Positions 9,774-29,957 of a stretch of 32,000 nt of DNA are shown here, piece after piece. Location: NCBI GenBank assembly GCA_035528905.1, contig DATKXU010000002.1, forward strand, positions 56,441-88,440, given 5' to 3'. The notes beneath the pieces were generated by a model. That model was not told the DNA's origin. It was given only the letters and a program-made list of their open reading frames with translations, and searched no databases. The first letter of the stretch is position 1, and each line of letters starts with the position of its first letter. The translations under genes and the position numbers were made by a program. This DNA comes from Armatimonadota bacterium. Lineage in GTDB: Bacteria > Armatimonadota > UBA5829 > DTJY01.

Positions 9774-12632
9774 ATGGGAGCCGATAGCATAGTCATCCGC
9801 GGAGCGCGGCAGCACAACCTCAAGAATATTGACCTCGAAATCCCCAGGGACAAGTTCGTCGTCATCACGGGCATCTCCGGGTCGGGGAAGTCGTCGCTTG
9901 CGTTCGACACTATCTACGCAGAGGGCCAGCGGCGCTATGTCGAGTCGCTGAGCGCCTATGCCAGGCAGTTCCTCGGCCAGATGGACAAGCCGGATGTGGA
10001 CTACATCGAGGGGCTTTCGCCCGCCGTCTCCATTGACCAGAGATCCACGACCAAGAATCCGCGTTCCACTGTCGGCACGGTCACAGAGATCTACGACTAC
10101 CTCCGGCTCTTGTTTGCCAGGGTGGGGCATCCGCACTGCCCTCGGTGCGGCCGCGAGATCAGCCAGCAGACGGTGCAGCAGATGGTAGACGCCGTGATGT
10201 CCCTCCCCGGGGATACGAAGTTCCAGGTTCTCGCGCCGGTGGTTCGGGGCCGTAAGGGCGAGTACAGGCAGGTCTTCGAGGACATTCGGAAGGAAGGGTA
10301 CGTCAGAGTCCGCGTAGACGGCCACACATATGAGGTAACGGACGACATCGAGCTGGACAGGTACAAGCAGCATTGGATTGATGTCGTCGTGGATCGTCTC
10401 GTGGTCAAGCCAGGCATTGAGAAGCGGCTCGCCGACTCGCTGGAAGCGGCGCTTAAAATGGGCAAGGGCGTCGTGGGCATTGACATCATCGGCGGCGAGC
10501 AGCTCCTCTTCTCCGAGCAATTCGCCTGCTCGGAGTGCGGCATCAGCATCGAGGAGATAGCCCCAAGGAATTTCTCGTTCAACAGCCCATACGGCGCGTG
10601 TCCGGACTGCCACGGCCTCGGCACGCATACGGAACTCGACCCGGCGCTGATTCTCCCGGACTGGAACCTCTCTATTGAGGATGGAGCGATTGCTCCTCTC
10701 TCACGCGCCACGGGCGACTATTTCCACGGCCTCCTCAGAGGAGTGAGTGAGAAATACAGGTTTTCTACGAGCACCCCGATCAGGGATTTGACCGACGAGC
10801 AAAGGAGCGCGCTTCTGTACGGCGCGGACGGCCCGATAGACGTCACATTCAGAAACCGCTACGGGCGCATGCGGCATTTTTACACAACATTCGACGGCAT
10901 AGTGGCCATCCTGAACCAAAGGCACGCGGAAACACACTCGCAGATGGTGCGCGAAGAGACCGAGAAGTACATGTCCACGGGGAAATGCCCCGCGTGCGAC
11001 GGCCAGCGCCTCCGCCCGGAGAGCCTGGCTGTCACGATCAGCGGGTTGAATGTCTCGCACGTAGCGGACTTCTCGGTGCAGCAGGCATACGACTTCTTCG
11101 ACACCCTGAGGCTGAGCGAGCGCGAATACACCATCGCGCGCCAGGCGATCAAGGAGATCAAGACGAGGCTCGGCTTCCTCACGAACGTGGGCTTGAGCTA
11201 CCTGACCCTCGATCGGCGGGCGGCAACCCTGGCGGGAGGCGAGGCCCAGAGAATACGCCTGGCAACCCAGATCGGCTCCGGCCTCATGGGAGTAATATAC
11301 ATCCTCGATGAGCCGAGCATCGGCCTTCACCAGAAAGACAACCGAAAACTCATAGACACCCTTCTCAAGCTCCGCGACCTGGGCAACACGATCATCGTCG
11401 TGGAGCATGATGAAGAGACAATCCGCTCGGCGGACCACATCATTGACCTGGGCCCCGGCGCAGGAGAGCATGGCGGGAGAGTCGTCGTCGCAGGAACGCT
11501 TGAAGATGTCATAAACGCGAAGAACTGCCTGACCGGCGACTACCTGACTGGACGGGAGTCAATACCTGTGCCGGGAAGGCGTCGCGAGGCGAACGGTCAG
11601 TTCATGGAGCTGCGAGGCGCGCGCGAGCACAATCTGAAGAACATCAATGTCCAATTTCCGCTTGGGATGTTCATATGCGTGACGGGTGTATCCGGCTCAG
11701 GCAAGAGCACGCTCGTTCAGGAGACACTGTTCCCGCGGCTGATGTACCGCCTGCACGGGACGCACGCCGCCTGGGGTGACCACGACGAGATAATCGGCAT
11801 CGAGCACATAGATAAGGTCATAGACATTGATCAGTCGCCGATCGGGAGGACGCCGAGGTCGAACCCCGCTACGTACACAGGCACTTTCGACATCATCCGC
11901 GATCTCTTTGCGAGCACTCCCGATGCAAGAGTGAGGGGTTACAAGCCCGGAAGGTTCAGCTTCAACGTGAAGGGCGGGCGATGCGAGGCATGCCGCGGCG
12001 ACGGCATCATCAAGATAGAGATGCACTTCCTGCCGGATGTCTATGTCCCGTGTGAGGTCTGCAAGGGAAAACGGTACAACCGCGAGACCCTGGAGATCAA
12101 ATACAAGGCGAAGAACATCGCCGATGTGCTGGATATGACCGTCGGGACCGCGCTGGAGTTCTTCAAGAACATACCGGCGATCATGCGGCGGCTTCAGACG
12201 ATACACGACGTGGGGCTGGATTACATAAAGCTGGGCCAGCCAGCCACAACGTTGTCCGGCGGCGAGGCACAGAGGGTGAAGCTCGCAACCGAGCTCGCTA
12301 AGAGAGGCACAGGAAGGACCGTCTACATCCTAGACGAGCCGACGACCGGCCTGCACTTCGCGGATATTCGAAAGCTGCTCGACGTATTGAACAGACTGAC
12401 GGACGCCGGGAACACGGTCATCGTGATAGAGCACAACCTGGAGGTCATCAAGACCGCCGATTACATAATTGATCTCGGCCCCGAAGGCGGTGACGAAGGC
12501 GGCCGCGTGATAGCGACGGGAACTCCCGAGGAGGTCGCCCAGGTCGCCAACTCGTACACAGGACAGTTCCTGCGCCGGATGCTCCCGCAGTACGCAGAAG
12601 CACGAAGGGAGAGAAAGGCGGCTGTGGTGTAG
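9774..12632 (+). CDS. uvrA: Excinuclease ABC subunit A
   Basis: The frame opens at ATG 9750. ATG 9774 gives the canonical N-terminus [55 protein letters not shown]. Two ABC ATPase modules (second Walker [10 protein letters not shown]), Zn-finger cysteines ([24 protein letters not shown]). Confidence 0.97.
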
Positions 12633-12706
12633 GCCGCACGGGATAAAGTTGTTTTGCTGGGGTGAGGGCTAGAACCCACACTATAACTTAAACCCGAGAC
12701 ACGATC

Positions 12707-14545
12707 ATGGAAGCAGCGCTTCGAGAAAAGCTCAAGCATCTGCCCGATAAGCCGGGCGTATATATGATGAAAGACGTGCGCGGAGAGGTGCTCTACGTCG
12801 GAAAGGCATCCTCTCTGCGCAGTCGGGTCCGCTCGTATTTCCAGAAGGGGCGAACGCATCAGCCGAAACTGCTGATCATGATGCCTAAGGTGAATGACGT
12901 AGACTGGCTTGTGACGGGCAGCGAGCTCGAGGCGCTCATGCTCGAGTGCAACCTCATCAAGCAGCACCATCCGCGCTACAACGTATGCCTCCGCGATGAC
13001 AAGCATTACCCATACCTCTGCGTGACAACTTCCGAGCCGTTCCCGCGCGTCCTGGTAGTCCGCCGCGTCAAGCAGGACGGGAACAGGTATTTCGGCCCTT
13101 ATGGCGATTCCTCAGCCATGCGGGAGAGTCTGCGGCTTATCAGAAGGGTCTTCAGGATCAGGGGCTGCAACAAGAAGCTCACTGGGGAGGAGCGCGATCG
13201 CCCCTGTCTGAATTTCCACCTCGGCCAGTGCGAATCGCCGTGCTCGGGCCGGATCGCCCAGGACGCGTATAGGGCATTGGTCCGGGATACGTGTTCCTTC
13301 CTGGAAGGGCGGGGAGAATCCCTCGTGGCCTCTCTCGAAAAGGAGATGGGGGCGGCGGCCGAGGCGCTTGAGTTCGAGAGAGCAGCCCGCCTTAGGGATC
13401 AGACCTGGTCGCTGCGCAAGCTCGTCGAGCGGCAGAAGGCGATCAGCACCGACCAGACAGACCGGGATATAGTATCCGCCAGCGTCGAGGGCGATTCGGC
13501 GTGCGTGCAGTTGCTGTTCGTGCGCTCAGGAAGGCTCATCGGGGAGGAGCGCTTCTTCCTCGACGGCGTGACCGACGAGGGCGCCGAGGCCGGCCTCGTG
13601 GGGTTCATCAAGCAGTACTACCGCGATGCCGCATACGTGCCGAAGGAAATCCTGGTGTCGCACGCGCTTCCGGAAAGGGCCATCCTGGAGGAGTGGCTGT
13701 CGCTCAGGCGGGGATCGAGGGTCAGGCTGATGCACCCGAAGCGCGGCGTTAAGCGCCGGCTGGTGGATATGGCGATCGAGAATGCTGCACTGGCTGCCGA
13801 GCGCGAGCGGAGTCAAGAAGCTGAGGCTGAAGCATGCGCAGACCTGCAGGCTCTCGCGCAGGCCCTCGGCCTCCCTGAGCCCCCGTCGCGGATCGAGGCG
13901 TACGACATCTCGAACATCCAGGGGCGTGAGGCGGTCGGCTCGATGGTGGTCTTCCAGCGCGGGCTGCCGGCGAAGTCGCAGTATCGGCGGTTCAAGATTC
14001 GTGCGGCCGAGCAGCCGGATGACTATGGGATGATCCGCGAGGTGTTACTGCGGAGGCTGGCACGGACTGCTGCCGGCGACCCCAAATTCGCCGCTCTGCC
14101 CGATCTTGTCCTGATAGACGGGGGTAGGGGACAGTTGAACGCAGCGCTGGACGCGCTGCGACCCGTTAGCCGTCAGCAGTTAGCCGCTAGCTCCGAAATC
14201 CGAATTGTGTCGTTGGCAAAGCGGCTGGAGGAGATTTACACGCCTGAATCGAGCAAGCCGCTTCTGCTCCCGTTGGATTCCCCTGCGCTCAGGCTGCTGC
14301 AGAGGATACGCGACGAGGCGCACCGCTTCGCCCTGGCCTACCACCGGAAGCTCCGCGTGAAGGCGGCGAAGAAGTCCGTGCTCGACGGCATCCCCGGAAT
14401 AGGCGATCAGCGCCGGAAGGCCCTCATCCGCAGGTTCGGCTCCCTCGCCGGCGTCCGCAGAGCTTCCCTCGAAGAGCTTCTCACCGTCCCCGGCATGACA
14501 CGGCCGGCTGCAGAGACAGTGTACGAGGCGTTGCATGGGGAGTAG
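12707..14545 (+). CDS. uvrC: Excinuclease ABC subunit C
   Basis: 612 aa. GIY-YIG N-terminus (PGVYMMKDVRGEVLYVGKASSLRSRVRSYF), UVR domain (FERAARLRDQ), endonuclease V-like region (IEAYDISN), C-terminal (HhH)2 (IPGIGDQRRKALIRRFGSL). It carries an in-frame repeat-derived segment at 14165-14205. Confidence 0.97.
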   Translation: MEAALREKLKHLPDKPGVYMMKDVRGEVLYVGKASSLRSRVRSYFQKGRTHQPKLLIMMPKVNDVDWLVTGSELEALMLECNLIKQHHPRYNVCLRDDKHYPYLCVTTSEPFPRVLVVRRVKQDGNRYFGPYGDSSAMRESLRLIRRVFRIRGCNKKLTGEERDRPCLNFHLGQCESPCSGRIAQDAYRALVRDTCSFLEGRGESLVASLEKEMGAAAEALEFERAARLRDQTWSLRKLVERQKAISTDQTDRDIVSASVEGDSACVQLLFVRSGRLIGEERFFLDGVTDEGAEAGLVGFIKQYYRDAAYVPKEILVSHALPERAILEEWLSLRRGSRVRLMHPKRGVKRRLVDMAIENAALAAERERSQEAEAEACADLQALAQALGLPEPPSRIEAYDISNIQGREAVGSMVVFQRGLPAKSQYRRFKIRAAEQPDDYGMIREVLLRRLARTAAGDPKFAALPDLVLIDGGRGQLNAALDALRPVSRQQLAASSEIRIVSLAKRLEEIYTPESSKPLLLPLDSPALRLLQRIRDEAHRFALAYHRKLRVKAAKKSVLDGIPGIGDQRRKALIRRFGSLAGVRRASLEELLTVPGMTRPAAETVYEALHGE

Positions 14546-14549
14546 GGGA

Positions 14550-14810
14550 CTAGCTAAACGTATATCGTCTCCAGGGAATCGCTCGCACAGGCACTGAAGC
14601 CAAGAAGTTCACTAGGTCACGCCGACCACAATACGTCGGTGCCCCCCGACCGTCCTGGGCCATCAGAACAATTGGCATGCCAGGAAAAAGAGGTGCAAAC
14701 GACCGTGTCGCCTCTCTTGCCAAATGGGAACTCTGGATGATGTGACGTTTCACGATCACCACTGCGAATGTGACTCCTTGCTCTCTTACGACCGCGCCGT
14801 CAATCTGCAT
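14550..14810 (-). CDS. Hypothetical 86-aa protein, last gene of the minus-strand island operon
   Basis: ATG at 14810 is preceded by AAGGGGG 7 nt upstream and lies 18 nt after the upstream gene's stop. Its stop codon is 4 nt from the convergent uvrC stop. No TM segment and no motif I can name. Confidence 0.6.
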   Translation of the reverse strand: MQIDGAVVREQGVTFAVVIVKRHIIQSSHLAREATRSFAPLFPGMPIVLMAQDGRGAPTYCGRRDLVNFLASVPVRAIPWRRYTFS

Positions 14811-14828
14811 TTTGTTACCCCCTTATTG

Positions 14829-15221
14829 CTATGGAAGACTGGAGAATGTGGCGGTCCCACCCATATTCAGCACGTAGGTGGCAAACCGCATCATCGGGGC
14901 ACCATGTGTGGAAACCAAGGTCTCAGCTGTTGCCAAAGCTTGTGCAGGGACGACAAGTGTAAAATTGAACAGTGTGCGGTAGGTCGTCCACTGCTGAACC
15001 TCTGAGTCATTGACGGAATCCCCGGTTTCCACTTCGAGGATGTAGTAGCTATTCTGATTCTTCAACTTGACGATGACATCGGGATACATCCCGTTAAAGC
15101 GTTGGTTTTGCGACGAGCCCGGGTTTGTCCAGACCTCAAAACCGTTGCGCTGATAAATCCCGGCGATAGCTGCAATAATCGCGTCGTGTTCAGATTGTGC
15201 ATTTAGCGTTCTTGTTGCCAT
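14829..15221 (-). CDS. Small (130 aa) PD-(D/E)xK-like (restriction-endonuclease-fold) protein, hypothetical
   Basis: The ORF track extends to 15371, but the internal ATG at 15221 has a strong SD (AGAAGGAGCACATC-ATG) and removes the overlap with the upstream gene. The motif YPDVIV-x12-ILEVET matches PD...ExE spacing. The canonical Lys is not evident. Confidence 0.65.
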   Translation of the reverse strand: MATRTLNAQSEHDAIIAAIAGIYQRNGFEVWTNPGSSQNQRFNGMYPDVIVKLKNQNSYYILEVETGDSVNDSEVQQWTTYRTLFNFTLVVPAQALATAETLVSTHGAPMMRFATYVLNMGGTATFSSLP

Positions 15222-15286
15222 GATGTGCTCCTTCTGTCTAAGCCGTATTGTGCAGTTGGCAGCTACTCTACCAGTGTTGAGCAATG

Positions 15287-16417
15287 CTAGAAGTCTAGGC
15301 TGCCTTGTCCTTTGGATTCTGGCTTGGCCTCGGGCATGCCCATACAGGCATCCAAGTAGCGCAGACGCCACTCTATTGCTGGGACAGAAACCCCGAACTG
15401 CCTTGCTAATTCCTGAACATCATCTACGCCGCTCTGGATGAGTTCGCATAGCGGTTTGGTAGGCATGATAAGCGCCGCAGCAAACACGTTAGCCTCAGTT
15501 TCACGGTGGGCCTTTCGTCTGAGTTCCTTCTCTTCTGACCTGGCAGCGATCACGTCGTTCGCTGTCAATGCTTGCAATACTTCCCAGGTCAGGTCCACTC
15601 GCTCTTCATCCACTGTCGCTTGCGGGTCCCTGTGGACGGCACCGCGCAGTTCGACCCTATGCATCATGGCATGGGCGATTTCATGACCAAACGTATACCG
15701 CTGCCTGGTCGGCCGCTCGTCGGCATTGATGCATATTCGGTTAGTATCTGGATCGAACCACCCAGAATCGCCCTGTCCCATACGGTCGAGAAAGTAATCG
15801 CAGCTTAGAGCTACCTCGCCTATCAGATCGACGGGTACAGGGATAGTTATGCTGCCTATGCCTCTAATGGACATATACATGGCGAGGGTTCTGTCTGCCT
15901 CATGTGCCACGTGCCGGTACCAATCGCATTTCTGAGTGGTTAGTATTCTGTGTTTCCCTGAAACCTTCGCTCTTAACTTTGCGAGTTGAACCGCAGCGAA
16001 GACCCGATTCCGGTCACGGACGTCTACAGTGGATCTTGCGTAAGCATGCGCTGGTCTAGGAAAGGGCACCGATGGAGAAGTTGTGGTTAACGATGTGCTG
16101 ACGGCAGCAAGAACAGACTGCAGCACCTCGGTGATTCGACTCGTGACACTTTCGCTCTTTCTTATACCAACCTCCCACTGGCCAAGGTCTGCTTCATCTA
16201 CTCCAGCCATTTGGGCGATTTGCCCACGTGGTACAGCACCAGCCCGGCGTAGTGCGCTGACAGCAGATGCTACATCCAGTCTCCGACCACTCGTGAGCGC
16301 TTCGGGACAATATCTGAGCACTGACACAAAGAGCTCAGCAAGATTCGAATCCCGCTCTGACCTGCTGCCAAACTTGGTGAAATATTCGCCCAATATTTTG
16401 TCCAGGCTCTCACTCAT
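15287..16417 (-). CDS. XRE-family HTH fused to an ImmA/IrrE-type (COG2856, peptidase M78) zinc metalloprotease
   Basis: 376 aa. N-terminal HTH-like ALRRAGAVPRGQIAQMAGVDEADLGQWEVGIRK. Zinc-binding HEIAH encoded at 15671-15685 (catgaaatcgcccat on the minus strand). ETEANVFAAALIMP and the C-terminal ELARQFGVSVPAIEWRLRYL are typical of ImmA/IrrE. GGGGGAG SD. The ATG overlaps the upstream stop (ATGAGTGA). Confidence 0.85.
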   Translation of the reverse strand: MSESLDKILGEYFTKFGSRSERDSNLAELFVSVLRYCPEALTSGRRLDVASAVSALRRAGAVPRGQIAQMAGVDEADLGQWEVGIRKSESVTSRITEVLQSVLAAVSTSLTTTSPSVPFPRPAHAYARSTVDVRDRNRVFAAVQLAKLRAKVSGKHRILTTQKCDWYRHVAHEADRTLAMYMSIRGIGSITIPVPVDLIGEVALSCDYFLDRMGQGDSGWFDPDTNRICINADERPTRQRYTFGHEIAHAMMHRVELRGAVHRDPQATVDEERVDLTWEVLQALTANDVIAARSEEKELRRKAHRETEANVFAAALIMPTKPLCELIQSGVDDVQELARQFGVSVPAIEWRLRYLDACMGMPEAKPESKGQGSLDF

Positions 16418-17042
16418 CGCAGTCTCCCCCTACCGAAACGTCCAATGTGGCAGAATTGGCAGCATCAGCGGCAAAGTACGGCTGCCTGCTTAATAGGGAG
16501 CCAAACTTTCGTTTTACTCTCCTGATTATGTTTTGCGGAGATTCGCCGCTAGGATAGCCTGCGTATGCTACCGCACCAACTGGCGAATATCCCGTGGAAT
16601 AAGCCCTCAGAAACTTCTGCTCCCGAATATCCATCTGCGTAAGTGCTGTTGTTACCGCTGCGACCCGTTCTGTCCGGTCTAAGCATTCCCATGGGTCTGG
16701 GGCATCCGAGGCAATATCAATTCCTTCTTCCCTCATAGCCTCAAGCGAACCCACAGTAGGGCGCTTCTCTTTGCGCTGGATATAACGTTTCCGCCTGTCT
16801 TCAGCTTTCAGCCAAACGAAGGATTTTATATTTTGTGTGCCGGATGGATCCCACTTCTTCAGGTCTAGGTACACACGGCGTAGCGTCTCCATACACTCAT
16901 CCTCTAGGTCCATGGGGTCTACTGTTTTGCTTAGGCGACGCTTAATAAGTTGTAGAGCCTGCTCTGCGAAGAGCGCCCACGTTTGAGGATCACCTGCGCG
17001 TAAGCGTTCTAGGCTGGCCATATCCCAATCGGCAACTCCCAT
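16410..17042 (-). CDS. Sigma-70/ECF-like protein (regions 2 and 4 recognisable), first gene of the island operon
   Basis: 210 aa. Region-2-like LRAGDPQTWALF...LEDECMETLRRVYLDLKKWDP...SFVWLKAEDRRKRYIQRKEKR. Region-4-like ALTQMDIREQKFLRAYSTGYSP...IIRRVKRKF. GAGGA SD 5 nt upstream. 8-nt overlap with the next gene. Confidence 0.6.
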   Translation of the reverse strand: MGVADWDMASLERLRAGDPQTWALFAEQALQLIKRRLSKTVDPMDLEDECMETLRRVYLDLKKWDPSGTQNIKSFVWLKAEDRRKRYIQRKEKRPTVGSLEAMREEGIDIASDAPDPWECLDRTERVAAVTTALTQMDIREQKFLRAYSTGYSPVGAVAYAGYPSGESPQNIIRRVKRKFGSLLSRQPYFAADAANSATLDVSVGGDCDE

Positions 17043-17077
17043 CGTATCCTCACAATCCGCCTCCCGTTTCTTGCCCT

Positions 17078-17106
17078 ATATACTTACCTACCGACTTTCG
17101 CCCAAT
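17078..17106 (-). promoter_or_regulatory. Candidate sigma-70-type promoter for the island operon (TTGGGC-17-TATATA on the minus strand)
   Basis: Read on the minus strand: TTGGGC (17101-17106), a 17-nt spacer, TATATA (17078-17083), ~35 nt upstream of the ATG at 17042. Confidence 0.4.
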
Positions 17107-17290
17107 CTGCCATCACAGGCGGGTTTTTCATGGGTACATGCGATGATATAGCAACCTTACTGGAGCGCAGACCAATTCTACGCTTTTCTGAAGGGTCTTG
17201 TAAAGCGCGGCTCAGCGTTAATCCGCAGGTGCCGCGCTACCGCATCACCGGCCCAGCACTCCATCACTCCTCACGAATCACGCTCGGAGT

Positions 17291-17350
17291 GGGAGGGCGA
17301 TCCGCCGCGGCCAATCCGTCGAACCGGCTCAGCAGGAGCTTCGCCCTCCC
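17291..17350. repeat. Second copy of the GGGAGGGCGA.../...TCGCCCTCCC hairpin repeat
   Basis: GGGAGGGCGA (17291-17300) pairs with TCGCCCTCCC (17341-17350). 17325-17350 (cggctcagcaggagcttcgccctccc) is the exact reverse complement of 9499-9524 (26/26). Confidence 0.9.
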
Positions 17351-17395
17351 GAATGCCCTGTTTAAACAATCCCATCCGGCATTTAGCATCCAGCC

Positions 17396-17586
17396 GTCAG
17401 CAGTTAGCCGTCAGCAGTTAGCCGCCAGCAGTTGGCATCGAGCATCTAGTATCCAGTATCCAGCATCCAGTATCGCTCAACACTCAACACTCCACACTCA
17501 ACTCTTTTCACTCCTCACTCCTCACTCCTCACTCGTCACGATCCACGAGCACGAGTAAGAGTACGAGTAGGATTCACGAGTACGAG
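17396..17586. repeat. Mosaic of five different short tandem-repeat blocks (14, 7, 7, 7 and 6-nt units)
   Basis: gtcagcagttagcc x2 plus a degenerate third copy (17396-17437). tatccag-type x4 (17450-17476). tcaacac-type x4 (17477-17504). cactcct x4 (17509-17536). NAcgag hexamers x7 (17544-17586). It ends with the box cacgatccacgagcacgagtaagagta (17537-17563). Confidence 0.9.
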
Positions 17587-17619
17587 GGCGCTTTGTGCGT
17601 GCAGAGGCCCGGCCTTTCG

Positions 17620-18528: not shown

Positions 18529-18717
18529 GTGTGGGAGTGTGGGGGTGACTGCGAGACGGGGAGAAATGGAGAACATCCAATCCGCCGCGGCGGAAAAGTC
18601 CAACGCTCAACGTCCAACTTCGAACTCCCAACCTGCAACCTGAAACTCGGAACCTGGAACCCTGGATCCCTTCCCTTGCGTAATACGCATCACGATCCAT
18701 GAGCACGAGTAGGAGTA
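18529..18717. repeat. Second mosaic of short tandem-repeat blocks, ending in the same 27-nt box as 17537-17563
   Basis: gtgtggga/gtgtgggg (18529-18544). 14-nt perfect palindrome tccgccgcggcgga (18581-18594). tcNaac-type units (18598-18632). aacctgc/aacctga/aactcgg/aacctgg/aaccctgg (18630-18665). Box cacgatccatgagcacgagtaggagta (18691-18717), 25/27 identical to 17537-17563. Its AGGAG serves as the rapZ SD. Confidence 0.85.
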
Positions 18718-27200: not shown

Positions 27201-27406
27201 TGAAGTGTGAGGATCCGGTAAGATAGACAAGGAGGATTCTTGCATGAAGGGTAAGCGGTATACGGAAGAGCACATCATCAACATGCTGAGGGAGTCGGCT
27301 TCGGATACTGACGGTCCTAGATGAGTACACGAGGGAGAGCCTGGCGATAGGGGTAGGCCGATCGGTGTCGGCGCAGTTCTTGTTTATGAGCTCAGGCAAG
27401 AACTGA
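27201..27406 (+). mobile_element. IS3-family insertion-sequence relic: left end, a 26-aa OrfA stub and a frame-shifted 29-aa OrfB fragment
   Basis: TGAAGTG... at 27201 resembles IS3-family terminal repeats. ATG 27244 encodes MKGKRYTEEHIINMLRES (OrfA HTH N-terminus) and is stopped at 27322. In another frame, 27317-27406 encodes LDEYTRESLAIGVGRSVSA (the DDE-core region motif xDxxxREcLAI). Most of the element is deleted, and I found no right inverted repeat. Confidence 0.7.
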
Positions 27407-27414
27407 CTGCGAGT

Positions 27415-27648
27415 GTGGTGTTTGCCAGAAAGCCTGACCTGCGGGAGATCGACCGTATCCTGAAGGGGCTCGGCATAACAAGTAAGGCGGTTCGAGACAT
27501 TATCCATCGCGAAATCTGGAAGGGACACTACACGCTTGAGGAGATCGAGGAAATAGCTGAGGATATAGGTAAGTTGATCACTAAAGGCGGTAAGCCACAC
27601 CCAGAAGGAGGAGAGCCAGAAAACCCAGATGGAGGAGGAGAAGAATAG
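27415..27648 (+). CDS. Hypothetical 77-aa protein, possibly the C-terminal remnant of a gene truncated by the IS
   Basis: GTG start with no clear SD. The frame is open upstream into the IS relic. KPDLREIDRILKGLGITSKAVRDIIHREIWKGHYTLEEIEEIAEDIGK plus an acidic Gly/Pro/Glu tail. Codon pattern looks coding. Confidence 0.4.
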   Translation: MVFARKPDLREIDRILKGLGITSKAVRDIIHREIWKGHYTLEEIEEIAEDIGKLITKGGKPHPEGGEPENPDGGGEE

Positions 27649-27720
27649 CCCATGTCTTCCATAGTGGTACCACCATACTAGTAGATTCTTGCTCGGCCGT
27701 ACACGTGCATCTGGTAAATC

Positions 27721-28152
27721 ATGTCTACGATCAATCAGGACGAACTCAGAGCGGCGCTCGATATGGCTATCAATGGCAAGCTTGTTGTCCAGAACTGGCT
27801 GGGTTATGCCAATGTTCTTTTTCTCGGCTTCGGCGATGAAGTTCTGCCGCGTGTCCCGGCTGGTGAGAGCCCCGCTTGGTCCCCGTATGAGCTGGAGACG
27901 AATTACGCCGACTGGTCTGTTGAGAATGAAAAGGGGATTGTTGGCACAGCAGATGATGAGCGCGCAAAGGCGCTGGCGGCTGTTGAACTTCTTGTCGGCC
28001 ACCGTGCAACCGGCTGGGCTTTTGGAGACACGCTATTCTGCTTGGTCGTCTATTTTGAAGGTGGATTTAAACTCAAGATCACCCCTATGGCGGACGCATT
28101 GACCGACGAGGAAATCCTGCGCAGGAATGGCGGGTTTGGAAGCGACAACTAG
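27721..28152 (+). CDS. Hypothetical 143-aa cytoplasmic protein (immunity-protein-like small beta-rich pattern)
   Basis: Chosen over the overlapping Arg/Ser-rich 27689 frame. Two-part pattern NGKLVVQNWLGYANVLFLGFGD...YELETNYADWSVE ... LLVGHRATGWAFGDTLFCLVVYFEGGFKLKITP. Weak SD. Confidence 0.55.
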   Translation: MSTINQDELRAALDMAINGKLVVQNWLGYANVLFLGFGDEVLPRVPAGESPAWSPYELETNYADWSVENEKGIVGTADDERAKALAAVELLVGHRATGWAFGDTLFCLVVYFEGGFKLKITPMADALTDEEILRRNGGFGSDN

Positions 28153-28259
28153 GTGGGAGGGAACCGACGGCCCTGGAGATAATAGAGAAAGCGGAAGAGA
28201 CTCTCCAAAAATATGGAAAGCAGCTCTACCCATAAGAATCGGTTAAGGAGGGATTTGGG

Positions 28260-28640
28260 ATGGATACAGCCAGGAAACGAGCATTGTTATACAAGCACAT
28301 AAGAAGCGGCATGCGATCAGACCGCGAATCTGCTGTAAACAGGATCCTCGGCAGGGAGAAACTGCCGACGGTCGGCCAGGTGGACTACTATGAAGTGCTT
28401 GGTAAGTACCTAACCTCGGAGGACGCCCTCTATGCCTTTCAGCGGGTTGTAGATGACCTAAGCCAGGGCTTACTGCACGGGATTTTCTGTGTGCTGGATG
28501 GGGCAACCGCAGTGACTGACTTCTATCAACCCGCTCTGATCGACCGCGATACCAAACAAGACCTCGCGCCAGAAGACAGCACATACCATGACGAGTTCTT
28601 TGACTACCTGTTGGACCAAGGGGACGAACTCGGCGTGTGA
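28260..28640 (+). CDS. Hypothetical 126-aa acidic protein
   Basis: Strong SD (AAGGAGGG) 8 nt upstream of the ATG. No TM segment and no recognisable motif. Confidence 0.6.
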   Translation: MDTARKRALLYKHIRSGMRSDRESAVNRILGREKLPTVGQVDYYEVLGKYLTSEDALYAFQRVVDDLSQGLLHGIFCVLDGATAVTDFYQPALIDRDTKQDLAPEDSTYHDEFFDYLLDQGDELGV

Positions 28641-28806
28641 TTTTCGAACACAGCGGTTAGCCCTGTTGACGTGCTAGACGAGAAGTGGGTATCGAGGCGG
28701 CCTTCCTCCTGGTTTTGATAGATTGGGAAACCGAGGAGGATCTGGCGCCGAGGAGCAGGAGACATTAACACGGTTTCTTCGATTATACGGGGAAAGGTGA
28801 TGCGTA

Positions 28807-29772
28807 ATGGATATATTCGCTGCTGTCACAGGTGGTGACGCTGCGGAGGTCACAAGGCTGCTCGACGCCGATCCCAGTCTTGTGGATGCGAAGGACGGAT
28901 TCGGGCTGACCCCTTTGCGGTGGGCAGCCTTCTATGGATACAAAGACATCGTGGAGCTGCTGCTTGATAGAGGCGCAAAGCTCAACCCCAAGGAGGAACA
29001 TGGCAGGACTCCTCTCTATTGGGCGGGCAAGGAAGGTCATATGGACGTACTGGATCTGCTCATTGCCAGGGGCGCCATTACAAAGGGCAATGCGACCAGA
29101 CTGCTATTTGTTGCAGCGGAAGATGGAAACTTGGAGCTGGCAAGAATCGCCATCGAAAAAGGAGCTGATATCAACGCCTCAAAGGGCGAGGACTTTGAGG
29201 ACTGGACACCGCTGCACGAGGCGGCAAGGGAAGGCCACGCCGAGGTCGTTAAACTCCTTCTTGCAAGCAGCGCTGACATCACGATAAGCTGGCATGGCAT
29301 GACACCGCTTCATCACGCAGCTAATGCGGAGGTTGCAGAGCTATTGATCGCAAACGGTGCAGACATTGAAGCCAGAGACCTTACGGGGCGGACTCCTCTG
29401 CGCACAGCAAGCGCCAGCGAAGTAGCAGCACTGTTGATCTCAAAAGGTGCGGACGTAAACGCTCGCAGCAATAATGGCGGCACCCCAGTGAACTCGCGCA
29501 AGGGGGTGGACAACAAGGACTTAATGGCAGTGCTCATTGCCGGGGGTGCAGATGTGAACGTGACGGACGGAGATGGTAGAACTGCGCTGAGCTACGCGGC
29601 CCAATATGATCTCCCAGAGTCAGCGAGACTATTCTTGGACCACGGCGCGGATATCAATGCCAAGGATAAGTCAGGGCGCACTCCCCTTGACTGGGCTGTA
29701 CGCCTTAGCCGGAAAGACACGGCTGACCTGCTGATTTCCAGAGGCGCCAAGATGAACACGGGTGGCAAGTGA
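28807..29772 (+). CDS. Ankyrin-repeat protein (~9 repeats)
   Basis: 321 aa. Repeated G-x-TPLH/R-x-A-x-x-G-H-x-x-V-x-x-LL-x-x-GA-D/K-x-N units (GLTPLRWAAFYGYKDIVELLLDRGAKLN, GRTPLYWAGKEGHMDVLDLLIARGA, WTPLHEAAREGHAEVVKLLLASSADI, and so on). No signal peptide. Confidence 0.9.
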   Translation: MDIFAAVTGGDAAEVTRLLDADPSLVDAKDGFGLTPLRWAAFYGYKDIVELLLDRGAKLNPKEEHGRTPLYWAGKEGHMDVLDLLIARGAITKGNATRLLFVAAEDGNLELARIAIEKGADINASKGEDFEDWTPLHEAAREGHAEVVKLLLASSADITISWHGMTPLHHAANAEVAELLIANGADIEARDLTGRTPLRTASASEVAALLISKGADVNARSNNGGTPVNSRKGVDNKDLMAVLIAGGADVNVTDGDGRTALSYAAQYDLPESARLFLDHGADINAKDKSGRTPLDWAVRLSRKDTADLLISRGAKMNTGGK

Positions 29773-29957
29773 TACAGTCGTGCCCTTGGCCCGACCAATC
29801 AGGGGTTCAATGCTCGTATAGTGTATGTTCATCAACACAGCTCACAAATGGATTCTACTAAGGCATACAAAGGAGGCTTAGGACAAGATGCGGATATTAG
29901 CGTATTTCCTGCTGGCTGTATGCCTGGCCGTCCGCGCAGCTCATTTAGCCTCTCTGG

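Follow-up and report, generated by a model that had tools for sequence, protein, structure and literature searches.

An island of four minus-strand genes lies between uvrC and ogt in a 32,000-nucleotide (nt) stretch of DNA from an uncultured Armatimonadota bacterium (GenBank assembly GCA_035528905.1, contig DATKXU010000002.1, positions 56,441 to 88,440), which we refer to as the window. In order of transcription, the genes encode a sigma-factor-like protein, a protein in which a putative helix-turn-helix (HTH) is fused to an M78-family peptidase, and two small proteins of 130 and 86 amino acids (aa). Our analysis indicates that this island is probably a horizontally acquired, self-regulated operon in which a conserved two-gene controller, composed of the sigma-like and HTH-M78 genes, drives interchangeable cargo of the defense type. 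The evidence comes from homologous loci, where the same pair of genes precedes different cargo, from a two-block promoter-like motif that these loci share, and from the composition and distribution of the island, which mark it as foreign DNA.

A conserved gene pair precedes varied cargo

The family to which the island belongs comprises eight loci, all of them metagenomic: that of the window plus L016, L018, L022, L023, L025, L026, and L027. The sigma-like and HTH-M78 genes occur together in five of the others (L016, L018, L022, L023, and L027), and each of the three full-length peptidase homologues is preceded by an overlapping gene for a sigma-like homologue of 207 to 216 aa (29 to 40% identical). 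The junction between the two genes is tight in every locus: start and stop overlap by 8 to 20 nt or are set apart by a single nucleotide, as is typical of operons for a sigma factor and its anti-sigma factor. The window has the 8-nt overlap ATGAGTGA (positions 16410 to 16417).

The genes that accompany the pair differ among loci. In L016 and L018, the genes downstream of the pair, on the same strand, encode a CD-NTase, an uncharacterized protein, and a SLATT_4 protein, a set that resembles a cyclic oligonucleotide-based antiphage signaling system (CBASS). In L022, a Multi_ubiq protein and a ThiF-type E1 are encoded after the pair, again on the same strand, and in L023 the pair is followed by an 86-aa gene (76% identical to that of the window), a DUF2188 gene, and a 123-aa gene. 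L027 carries the sigma-like gene, the M78 gene, and then a gene of more than 327 aa with no assigned family. The contig of L026 ends at the sigma-like gene, which is accompanied by divergently encoded YukD-type ubiquitin-like and E2 proteins; L025 is a 1-kb contig on which the sigma-like gene is followed by an 86-codon open reading frame (ORF) that is cut by the contig end and is a candidate for the start of the peptidase gene. Pair and cargo lie on the same strand in all loci with visible cargo. The CBASS-bearing cassette of L016 (positions 9900 to 14913 of that locus) is situated within a defense island, where it adjoins a GmrSD-type nuclease and a BrxC/PglY-like ATPase.

Because the same pair precedes different cargo among homologous loci, we regard the sigma-like and HTH-M78 genes as the conserved unit and the downstream genes as interchangeable. 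The initial annotation of this DNA, which was made from the sequence of the window, had proposed instead that the four genes form one module, with the sigma-like gene as an extra layer on a toxin-antitoxin-like module. Neither proposal stands: only the pair is conserved, with the 86-aa gene beside it in one further locus (L023) and the 130-aa gene in none, and the sigma-like gene is half of the conserved core while the small proteins are cargo. The broader suggestion of a defense module fared better in part. It gains from the defense-type context of the homologous loci (CBASS-like genes, multi-ubiquitin plus E1, and DUF2188) and loses from the PADLOC search, in which neither small protein had any match.

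Alignment of the eight loci also revealed a conserved promoter-like motif, GGCAGAT-N13-GTAGnTAA(g/t)(t/a), which was present in 8 of 8 loci with a constant 13-nt spacing and was located 65 to 84 nt 5' of the sigma start codon. In the window, its blocks are GGCAGAT (17111 to 17105) and GTAGGTAAGTAT (17091 to 17080). An A-tract precedes the motif in most loci (17129 to 17121 in the window). When each locus was scored with a position weight matrix built from the other loci (leave-one-out), the motif ranked first among all positions of the locus in six of the eight cases (ahead by ~10 bits), second in one, and 47th in one; in the window locus, it scored 23.6 versus 12.6 bits. A matrix scan of the window found no second copy, neither ahead of the cargo genes nor near the repair genes, and no conserved palindromic operator was found near the motif. 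A single promoter for one operon fits these two results better than a dimeric operator does. The initial annotation had assigned a TTGGGC-17-TATATA promoter here. Both hexamers are present (TTGGGC at 17105 to 17100 and TATATA at 17082 to 17077); however, the blocks conserved across loci are GGCAGAT and GTAGGTAAGTAT, and TTGGGC falls in the nonconserved spacer. The usual promoter consensus of extracytoplasmic function (ECF) sigma factors is of the GGAAC/CGT type, and the GGCAGAT/GTAG motif is unlike it.

On the basis of profile matches, the first gene is accepted here as encoding a putative divergent ECF-type protein of the sigma-70 family, which agrees with the initial annotation. The window protein matched TIGR02937 with an E value of 1.3e-6 (28.1 bits versus a cut-off of 42.9) and Sigma70_r2 with an E value of 0.042 (14.1 bits versus a cut-off of 24). 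Its homologues matched TIGR02937 more strongly (4e-10 for P0010, 3e-8 for P0011, and 1.6e-10 for P0012), the best of them reaching 39.6 to 40.8 bits across the sigma-2 and sigma-4 regions. This model was matched by all four aligned family members, and every NCBIfam match of these proteins is to a sigma-factor family. In addition, P0012 matches PRK05602 across residues 15 to 195, and the best match in a profile search of the PDB with the sigma-like protein was the sigma-2 region of RpoE. The family is rare: a word-indexed homology search with the sigma-like protein matched only the query itself, and it was an exhaustive HMMER search of 1.84 billion representatives that revealed the family, as seven clusters at E < 1e-10, the window's own included. 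No match to the sigma-like protein was obtained by tblastn in plasmid and phage collections. Conservation among the homologues extends to the very first residue of the 210-aa ORF, which indicates that the publicly annotated 160-aa version, with M51 as its start, is N-terminally truncated.

The second gene encodes an M78 peptidase with a probable N-terminal HTH of the Xre type, as had been recognized from the letters alone. Peptidase_M78 (PF06114) matched residues 221 to 352 (E = 6e-19), the HEIAH motif is at residues 245 to 249, and an ETEANVF motif is invariant among the homologues. The best PADLOC match of the peptidase was capP (1e-18). Thirteen RmrA models also matched (1.8e-8 to 2.3e-4), all far below capP, most of them covering residues 300 to 356 only and one covering residues 54 to 254. 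The NCBIfam family "spr1629 family repressor/antitoxin" matched the protein at 9e-5, and the closest solved relative of the M78 domain, by sequence, is IrrE. For the HTH (residues 48 to 90), the signal is weak yet consistent. When the first 110 residues of six family members were used as a profile, nearly all PDB matches were Xre-type repressors; the top ones (P22 C2, HipB, PezA, SinR, and Aca3) aligned to residues 48 to 87 at borderline E values of 0.024 to 0.5, and the L027 homologue matches HTH_3 and HTH_19 (0.003 to 0.008). A C-terminal GAF domain was not found: the HTH-M78 protein ends ~24 residues past the peptidase domain and matches positions 50 to 150 of the 242 positions of the capP profile.

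Full-length homologues of the HTH-M78 protein number three among 5.8 billion clusters (41 to 56% identical). No family member turned up when metagenome and viral contigs were scanned with the peptidase alignment, a scan of genome contigs with the peptidase gave one irrelevant partial match, and tblastn against plasmids gave a weak partial match only; in the phage, plasmid, and IMG/VR collections searched, there was no full-length relative of the fused peptidase. Two cysteines, C37 and C358, are invariant in six homologues and are reminiscent, by analogy, of the autoinhibitory cysteine switch of CapP.

Within the island, the arrangement of the genes is that expected of a single transcription unit. 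The initial annotation had described four tightly coupled minus-strand genes, and the overlap, the intergenic gaps (65 nt between the HTH-M78 and 130-aa genes and 18 nt between the 130-aa and 86-aa genes), and the Shine-Dalgarno sequences (GGAG or GGGGG type, 5 to 9 nt 5' of the start codon of every one of the four genes) were all located in the sequence. Neither an internal terminator nor a second promoter motif was found within the four-gene island. Transcription of the island is convergent with that of uvrC, whose stop codon ends at 14545, and divergent from that of ogt, from which it is separated by ~600 nt of repeats. The convergent stop codons of uvrC and the 86-aa gene are 4 nt apart, and a terminator scan of this junction found nothing; coordinates and scan thus agree with what the annotation had said. 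The ORF map is also consistent with its statement that this is the sole minus-strand operon of the 32 kb, as the other long minus-strand ORFs overlap plus-strand genes or translate to junk.

The island is foreign, as shown by its atypical composition and its absence from the uvrC-ogt interval of relatives. The initial annotation had judged it by eye to be AT-richer than its flanks, and this is now borne out by measurement: its G+C content is 0.531 versus 0.584 for the remaining window, and the G+C content at third codon positions (GC3) of its four genes is 0.50 to 0.59 versus 0.71 to 0.82 for the flanking housekeeping genes. By tetranucleotide deviation, the island ranks first among the 3-kb windows of the 32 kb (z = 3.96). 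A UvrC scan identified relatives that keep the gene order uvrA-uvrC-ogt-holin-rapZ-yvcK. In two of them, L031 and L033 (UvrC 68% and 63% identical, respectively), almost nothing separates uvrC from ogt. L029 and L030 are the closest relatives (uvrC 85% and 81% identical, respectively); their uvrC-ogt gap consists of ~1.4 kb of unrelated DNA with a single 275-aa ORF (minus strand, 9994 to 10821 in L029) that has no Pfam match, so the cargo that the site accepts differs among lineages. In L035, the gap is ~0.9 kb and contains nothing that convincingly resembles a gene; its ORFs overlap one another, and their translations are repetitive and of low complexity. By blastn, homology of the window to L029 and L030 is lost at 14548 to 14551 and regained at 17571 to 17598, which places the inserted segment at approximately the interval listed in Table 1. 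At the borders of the island, no flanking direct repeats, tRNA gene, integrase or recombinase gene among the neighbors, or phage structural gene was found, and the window as a whole holds no tRNA gene and no Rfam family.

The two small cargo proteins

The 86-aa protein matches phrog_23950 over its full length (residues 1 to 84 against profile positions 1 to 81 of 82; E = 2.8e-28), a family that is widespread on phages and plasmids and has no assigned function. Its plasmid homologues (59 to 67% identical) are found on conjugative or mobilizable alphaproteobacterial plasmids, including conjugative plasmids of Rhizobium and Agrobacterium (60 to 67%). There the gene usually lies 3' of a DUF2188 gene, and the genes divergent from the resulting pair encode either an AAA-ATPase and an S8 peptidase or HTH proteins. 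In L011, L013, L057, and L058 (Rhizobium plasmids and Leptolyngbya pLBX, two phyla), either the DUF2188/86-aa pair or a lone 86-aa gene adjoins AAA-ATPase and S8-peptidase genes, which may represent another sensor or regulator paired with 86-aa cargo. A Fuscovulum plasmid carries an unfused trio of sigma-like, 146-aa, and M78 genes, divergent from a 92-aa plus 86-aa pair, an independent arrangement that speaks for a controller with cargo. This trio was considered as an orthologue of the sigma plus HTH-M78 family and rejected, because distant relatedness is confined to its peptidase domain.

The 86-aa family also occurs as a lone gene in 33 IMG/VR viral contigs, with cI/Cro-type repressors nearby in 17 of the 33. 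Integrases and Ant anti-repressors are likewise found near it, and where an integrase is present, the 86-aa gene is on the same strand. These surroundings are those of the lysogeny module, which is the usual place of exclusion or defense genes that are expressed from prophages. A single-sequence AlphaFold model of the 86-aa protein was confident (predicted local distance difference test [pLDDT] of 91.2; predicted template modeling score of 0.80), and Foldseek with this model returned no convincing structural neighbor. The best match was the C-terminal domain of a tRNA-splicing endonuclease, with a query template modeling score (TM-score) of at most 0.45; because such nuclease likenesses were weak throughout (query TM-scores below 0.5), we did not take them as an assignment. 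The ORF is intact and conserved relative to its homologues.

The 130-aa protein is possibly a minimal PD-(D/E)xK-like nuclease, as its sequence weakly suggests. The initial annotation had proposed this fold, and one part of the evidence points that way: the AHJR-like restriction endonuclease family of Pfam matched at 9e-4 (19.3 bits, below the cut-off of 26.1). The conserved motifs are YPD48 and E63-V-E65, the latter without a lysine. The other part is uninformative, because the AlphaFold model is of low confidence (pLDDT 59), and a Foldseek search with so poor a model gave no significant match; the helix-strand-strand-strand-helix order of the model is compatible with a PD-(D/E)xK core. Among 5.8 billion clusters, the sole homologue is P0003 (39% identical), whose gene, together with that for a 177-aa uncharacterized protein, separates hsdS from hsdR in a type I restriction-modification operon (L007, 2793 to 3731). 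Accessory defense genes are often embedded in such operons at this position. Nothing of the 130-aa family was found by tblastn in the plasmid and phage collections or in the viral contig scan. Like the 86-aa ORF, the 130-aa ORF is intact and conserved relative to its homologue. The proposal that these small proteins are toxins of the RosmerTA type was not borne out, as no RmrT or other toxin model of PADLOC matches either of them.

A candidate regulatory switch, its rivals, and its known relatives

The proposed operation of the locus is as follows. At rest, the HTH-M78 protein, whose gene occupies the position of an anti-sigma factor gene, would silence the operon by binding in the promoter region, by sequestering the cotranslated sigma-like protein, or both. 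A signal of infection or stress, perhaps DNA damage or single-stranded DNA (ssDNA) by analogy with CapP, IrrE, and ImmA, would activate the peptidase, which would then cut the HTH-bearing polypeptide, in cis or in trans, within the poorly conserved linker (approximately residues 95 to 150). The freed sigma-like protein would direct RNA polymerase to its own promoter, producing positive feedback and a burst of cargo expression. The nuclease-like 130-aa protein and the highly conserved 86-aa protein would be the effectors, directed at the invader or at the cell that it has infected.

Several observations weigh against this view of the island. The family is small, with its eight loci all metagenomic, and generalizations drawn from it are fragile for that reason. 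The sigma-family scores all lie under curated cut-offs, and the HTH assignment rests on borderline E values (0.02 to 0.1). The HTH-M78 protein lacks the C-terminal GAF domain that in CapP and IrrE forms part of the groove that senses ssDNA or a ligand, so the activating signal may differ from theirs. The second block of the promoter-like motif includes a TAnnnT-like -10 element, and the motif could be read by the housekeeping sigma factor; recognition by the HTH is another possibility. Regulators and cargo share one direction of transcription, unlike the divergent CapH/CapP. On the cargo side, PADLOC models match neither protein, the nuclease fold of the 130-aa protein is tentative, and no activity could be assigned to the 86-aa protein; because its gene stands alone in phage lysogeny modules, its benefit may go to the mobile element and not to the defense of the host.

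Four other explanations were weighed. One is a RosmerTA-like toxin-antitoxin system, in which the HTH-M78 protein would be an RmrA-like antitoxin or repressor that neutralizes one or both small proteins as toxins and the sigma-like protein would be an accessory. The fusion of HTH and M78 is indeed the RmrA architecture, the small variable genes are in the position of a toxin gene, and the 13 RmrA models and the spr1629 family match the protein; comparable regulator pairs have also been co-opted into toxin-antitoxin systems (CapK/CapS to VapK/VapS/VapC; PMC13373217). We nevertheless consider this explanation unlikely, given that capP is a far better match than the best RmrA model, that no RmrT or toxin model matches the small proteins, that an obligate sigma partner and a conserved promoter motif are foreign to RosmerTA, and that the 86-aa gene stands without an antitoxin-like neighbor in the 33 viral contigs. 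Furthermore, the multi-gene CBASS-like and ubiquitin-like systems that the pair fronts are more than simple toxins, and control of their transcription is a better fit to them than stoichiometric neutralization is. Somewhat less probable still is that the island is the remnant of a lysogeny or excision switch of the ImmR/ImmA type, serving regulation of a mobile element or superinfection exclusion. In and beside the island, integrase, excisionase, and phage structural genes are absent, as are att-like repeats and tRNA genes, and the pair in related loci fronts CBASS-like and ubiquitin-like operons and not excision genes. The searches made of phage, plasmid, and IMG/VR collections yielded neither a tblastn match to the sigma-like protein nor a full-length relative of the fused peptidase. 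In favor of such a remnant, the 86-aa family belongs to a PHROG and lies near cI/Cro, integrases, and Ant in viral contigs, the HTH plus M78 combination follows ImmR/ImmA logic, the island is foreign DNA, and the cassette in L018 adjoins a serine recombinase and an endolysin-like gene.

That the four genes form no functional unit, with the cargo being unrelated hitchhikers or decaying ORFs behind the regulator pair, would account for the restriction of the four-gene set to this lineage and for a 130-aa family of two known members that accompanies the pair nowhere else. We think this has little chance of being correct, since the gaps are short, the Shine-Dalgarno sequences strong, the composition uniform, and the island free of an internal terminator or second motif, and since both cargo ORFs are intact and conserved and the 86-aa gene again lies directly behind the pair in L023. 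M78/HTH pairs control DNA damage regulons in Deinococcus, and the location of the island between uvrC and ogt, together with the relationship of its peptidase domain to IrrE, raises the idea of a native IrrE/DdrO-style regulator of the neighboring repair genes (uvrA, uvrC, and ogt). This is highly improbable: the island has a foreign composition and is absent from relatives that keep the uvrA-uvrC-ogt-rapZ order, it is convergent with uvrC and divergent from ogt, no copy of the motif lies near the repair genes, and in other genomes the neighbors of the cassette are flagellar, ABC transporter, or defense genes. An acquired operon in which a sigma plus HTH-M78 controller drives defense-type cargo accordingly remains the explanation that we favor.

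How toxic anti-phage systems are silenced and switched on is an active question, and three regulator families of such systems have been characterized: CapW/BrxR, CapH plus CapP, and CapK plus CapS (PMC13373217, 2026). Among them, CapH (an HTH protein) and CapP (M78-linker-GAF) are the closest in kind to the present pair. They are controllers, triggered by DNA damage or ssDNA, of CBASS, DISARM, and DUF2188/DUF3892 operons and of ubiquitin-like "6a/6e" systems (Lau et al. 2022, bioRxiv 10.1101/2022.04.27.489752). The present pair shares with them an M78 peptidase and, probably, an Xre-type HTH, as well as a position directly upstream of CBASS, multi-ubiquitin plus E1 ("6e"), and DUF2188-type cargo. 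It differs in that the HTH is fused N-terminally to the peptidase with no GAF after it, in that a dedicated, translationally coupled ECF-like sigma gene is always present along with a family-specific promoter motif, and in the co-directional arrangement of regulators and cargo. The initial annotation did not recognize a sigma layer from described systems; however, a sigma-70-family gene had already been noted beside capH/capP in 24 of 408 CBASS systems, and a CapH-CapP fusion in 15, without follow-up or characterization (Lau et al. 2022). In part 1 of the five parts of Table S1 of that study, no row carries both "Sigma-70 present" and "CapH-CapP fusion", which are given there as distinct notes.

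Other known systems are related to individual parts of the locus. RosmerTA (RmrT/RmrA) resembles it in the fusion of HTH and M78, in the length of the fused protein, in the small variable neighbors, and through the weak matches to RmrA models, whereas the present locus has no RmrT-like match, has a sigma partner and a shared promoter, and fronts multi-gene systems. ImmR/ImmA (ICEBs1 and phage phi105) and DdrO/IrrE (Deinococcus) combine M78 with an Xre-type HTH, as the present pair probably does, with proteolysis of the HTH protein as the expected activation logic; the present pair differs in lying outside an excision module or a chromosomal DNA damage regulon, in being fused, in the added sigma, and in the missing GAF. 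Classical ECF sigma/anti-sigma operons resemble it in that the sigma gene is first, a partner gene overlaps its stop codon, and an upstream two-block motif suggests autoregulation, but here the partner has an HTH and a peptidase in place of any recognizable anti-sigma domain. Gating of ECF sigma factors by proteases or anti-sigma factors is an established mode of immune control. Examples are DdvS/DdvA of Myxococcus (PMC11506125), CalpL/CalpT/CalpS (the Calp system, PMC12751052), and the type III-E Craspase-Csx30-sigma system, for whose sigma factor NCBIfam provides a dedicated model. All of these place an ECF-type sigma in a defense locus beside a protease or anti-sigma partner, as is predicted here, and infection would be expected to bring about a transcriptional response. 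The partners are not homologous, however: no Lon/SAVED, TPR-CHAT, or transmembrane anti-sigma protein is found in the present locus, whose protease is a zincin of the M78 family joined to an HTH and whose cargo shares an operon with the sigma gene.

On this view, the locus is a compact, rare fourth arrangement among regulators of anti-phage systems, with an ECF-like sigma hard-wired to a CapH-CapP-like fusion and a recognizable motif, spread over several phyla. With three parts and one promoter, it offers a testbed for whether proteolysis can gate sigma factors in innate immune systems other than those linked to CRISPR. The locus further flags two uncharacterized small proteins as candidate effectors, of which the 86-aa one is widespread in prophages and conjugative plasmids. 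A bolder interpretation, which we hold only tentatively and regard as rather doubtful, is that the pair is a self-contained, protease-gated sigma/anti-sigma switch and a further family of controllers of adjacent pathways, one in which immune operons would be turned on through activation of a dedicated sigma with positive feedback and not through simple derepression. The 86-aa protein, which is 60 to 76% identical across Armatimonadota, plasmids of Alphaproteobacteria, and prophage lysogeny modules and has a confident fold with no structural neighbor, would in that interpretation be a new minimal stand-alone conflict effector.

Repeats and other features of the window

The features of the island and its borders are collected in Table 1. 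The tandem repeats at its ogt-proximal edge were found by Tandem Repeats Finder with periods of 7, 14, and 21 nt. Tandem 7-nt units (for example, TCACTCC, ATCCAGT, CTCAACA, and CAGCCGT) also occur at 18608 to 18671 and 14163 to 14191 and are mostly intergenic around the uvrC-ogt junction. They resemble the short tandem heptamer repeats of some bacteria and may mark an insertion hotspot.

Table 1. Coordinates of the island and associated features in the window
Feature	Position	Strand	Basis or remark
Inserted segment (island) between uvrC and ogt	14549-17570		blastn breakpoints, composition
86-aa gene	14550-14810	minus	ORF map
130-aa gene	14829-15221	minus	ATG start; longest ORF would begin at GTG, 15371
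HTH-M78 gene, 376 aa	15287-16417	minus	ORF map
Sigma-like gene, 210 aa	16410-17042	minus	ORF map
Promoter-like motif GGCAGAT-N13-GTAGGTAAGTAT	17080-17111	minus	Alignment of 8 loci; 69 nt 5' of sigma start
Candidate basal promoter TTTACA-18-TAGAAT	17175-17204	minus	Sigma-70 consensus scan of the window, 10/12 matches
Several different 7-nt tandem repeats, noncoding	17385-17586		Tandem Repeats Finder; ogt-proximal island edge

A second stretch of low GC3 (0.53 to 0.63) was observed at 27400 to 29800 of the window, 3' of groEL. Three small ORFs on the plus strand, of 77, 143, and 126 aa, and a gene for an ankyrin-repeat protein (28807 to 29772) lie within it. This stretch, too, may have been acquired, perhaps as a cassette of the immunity-protein type.

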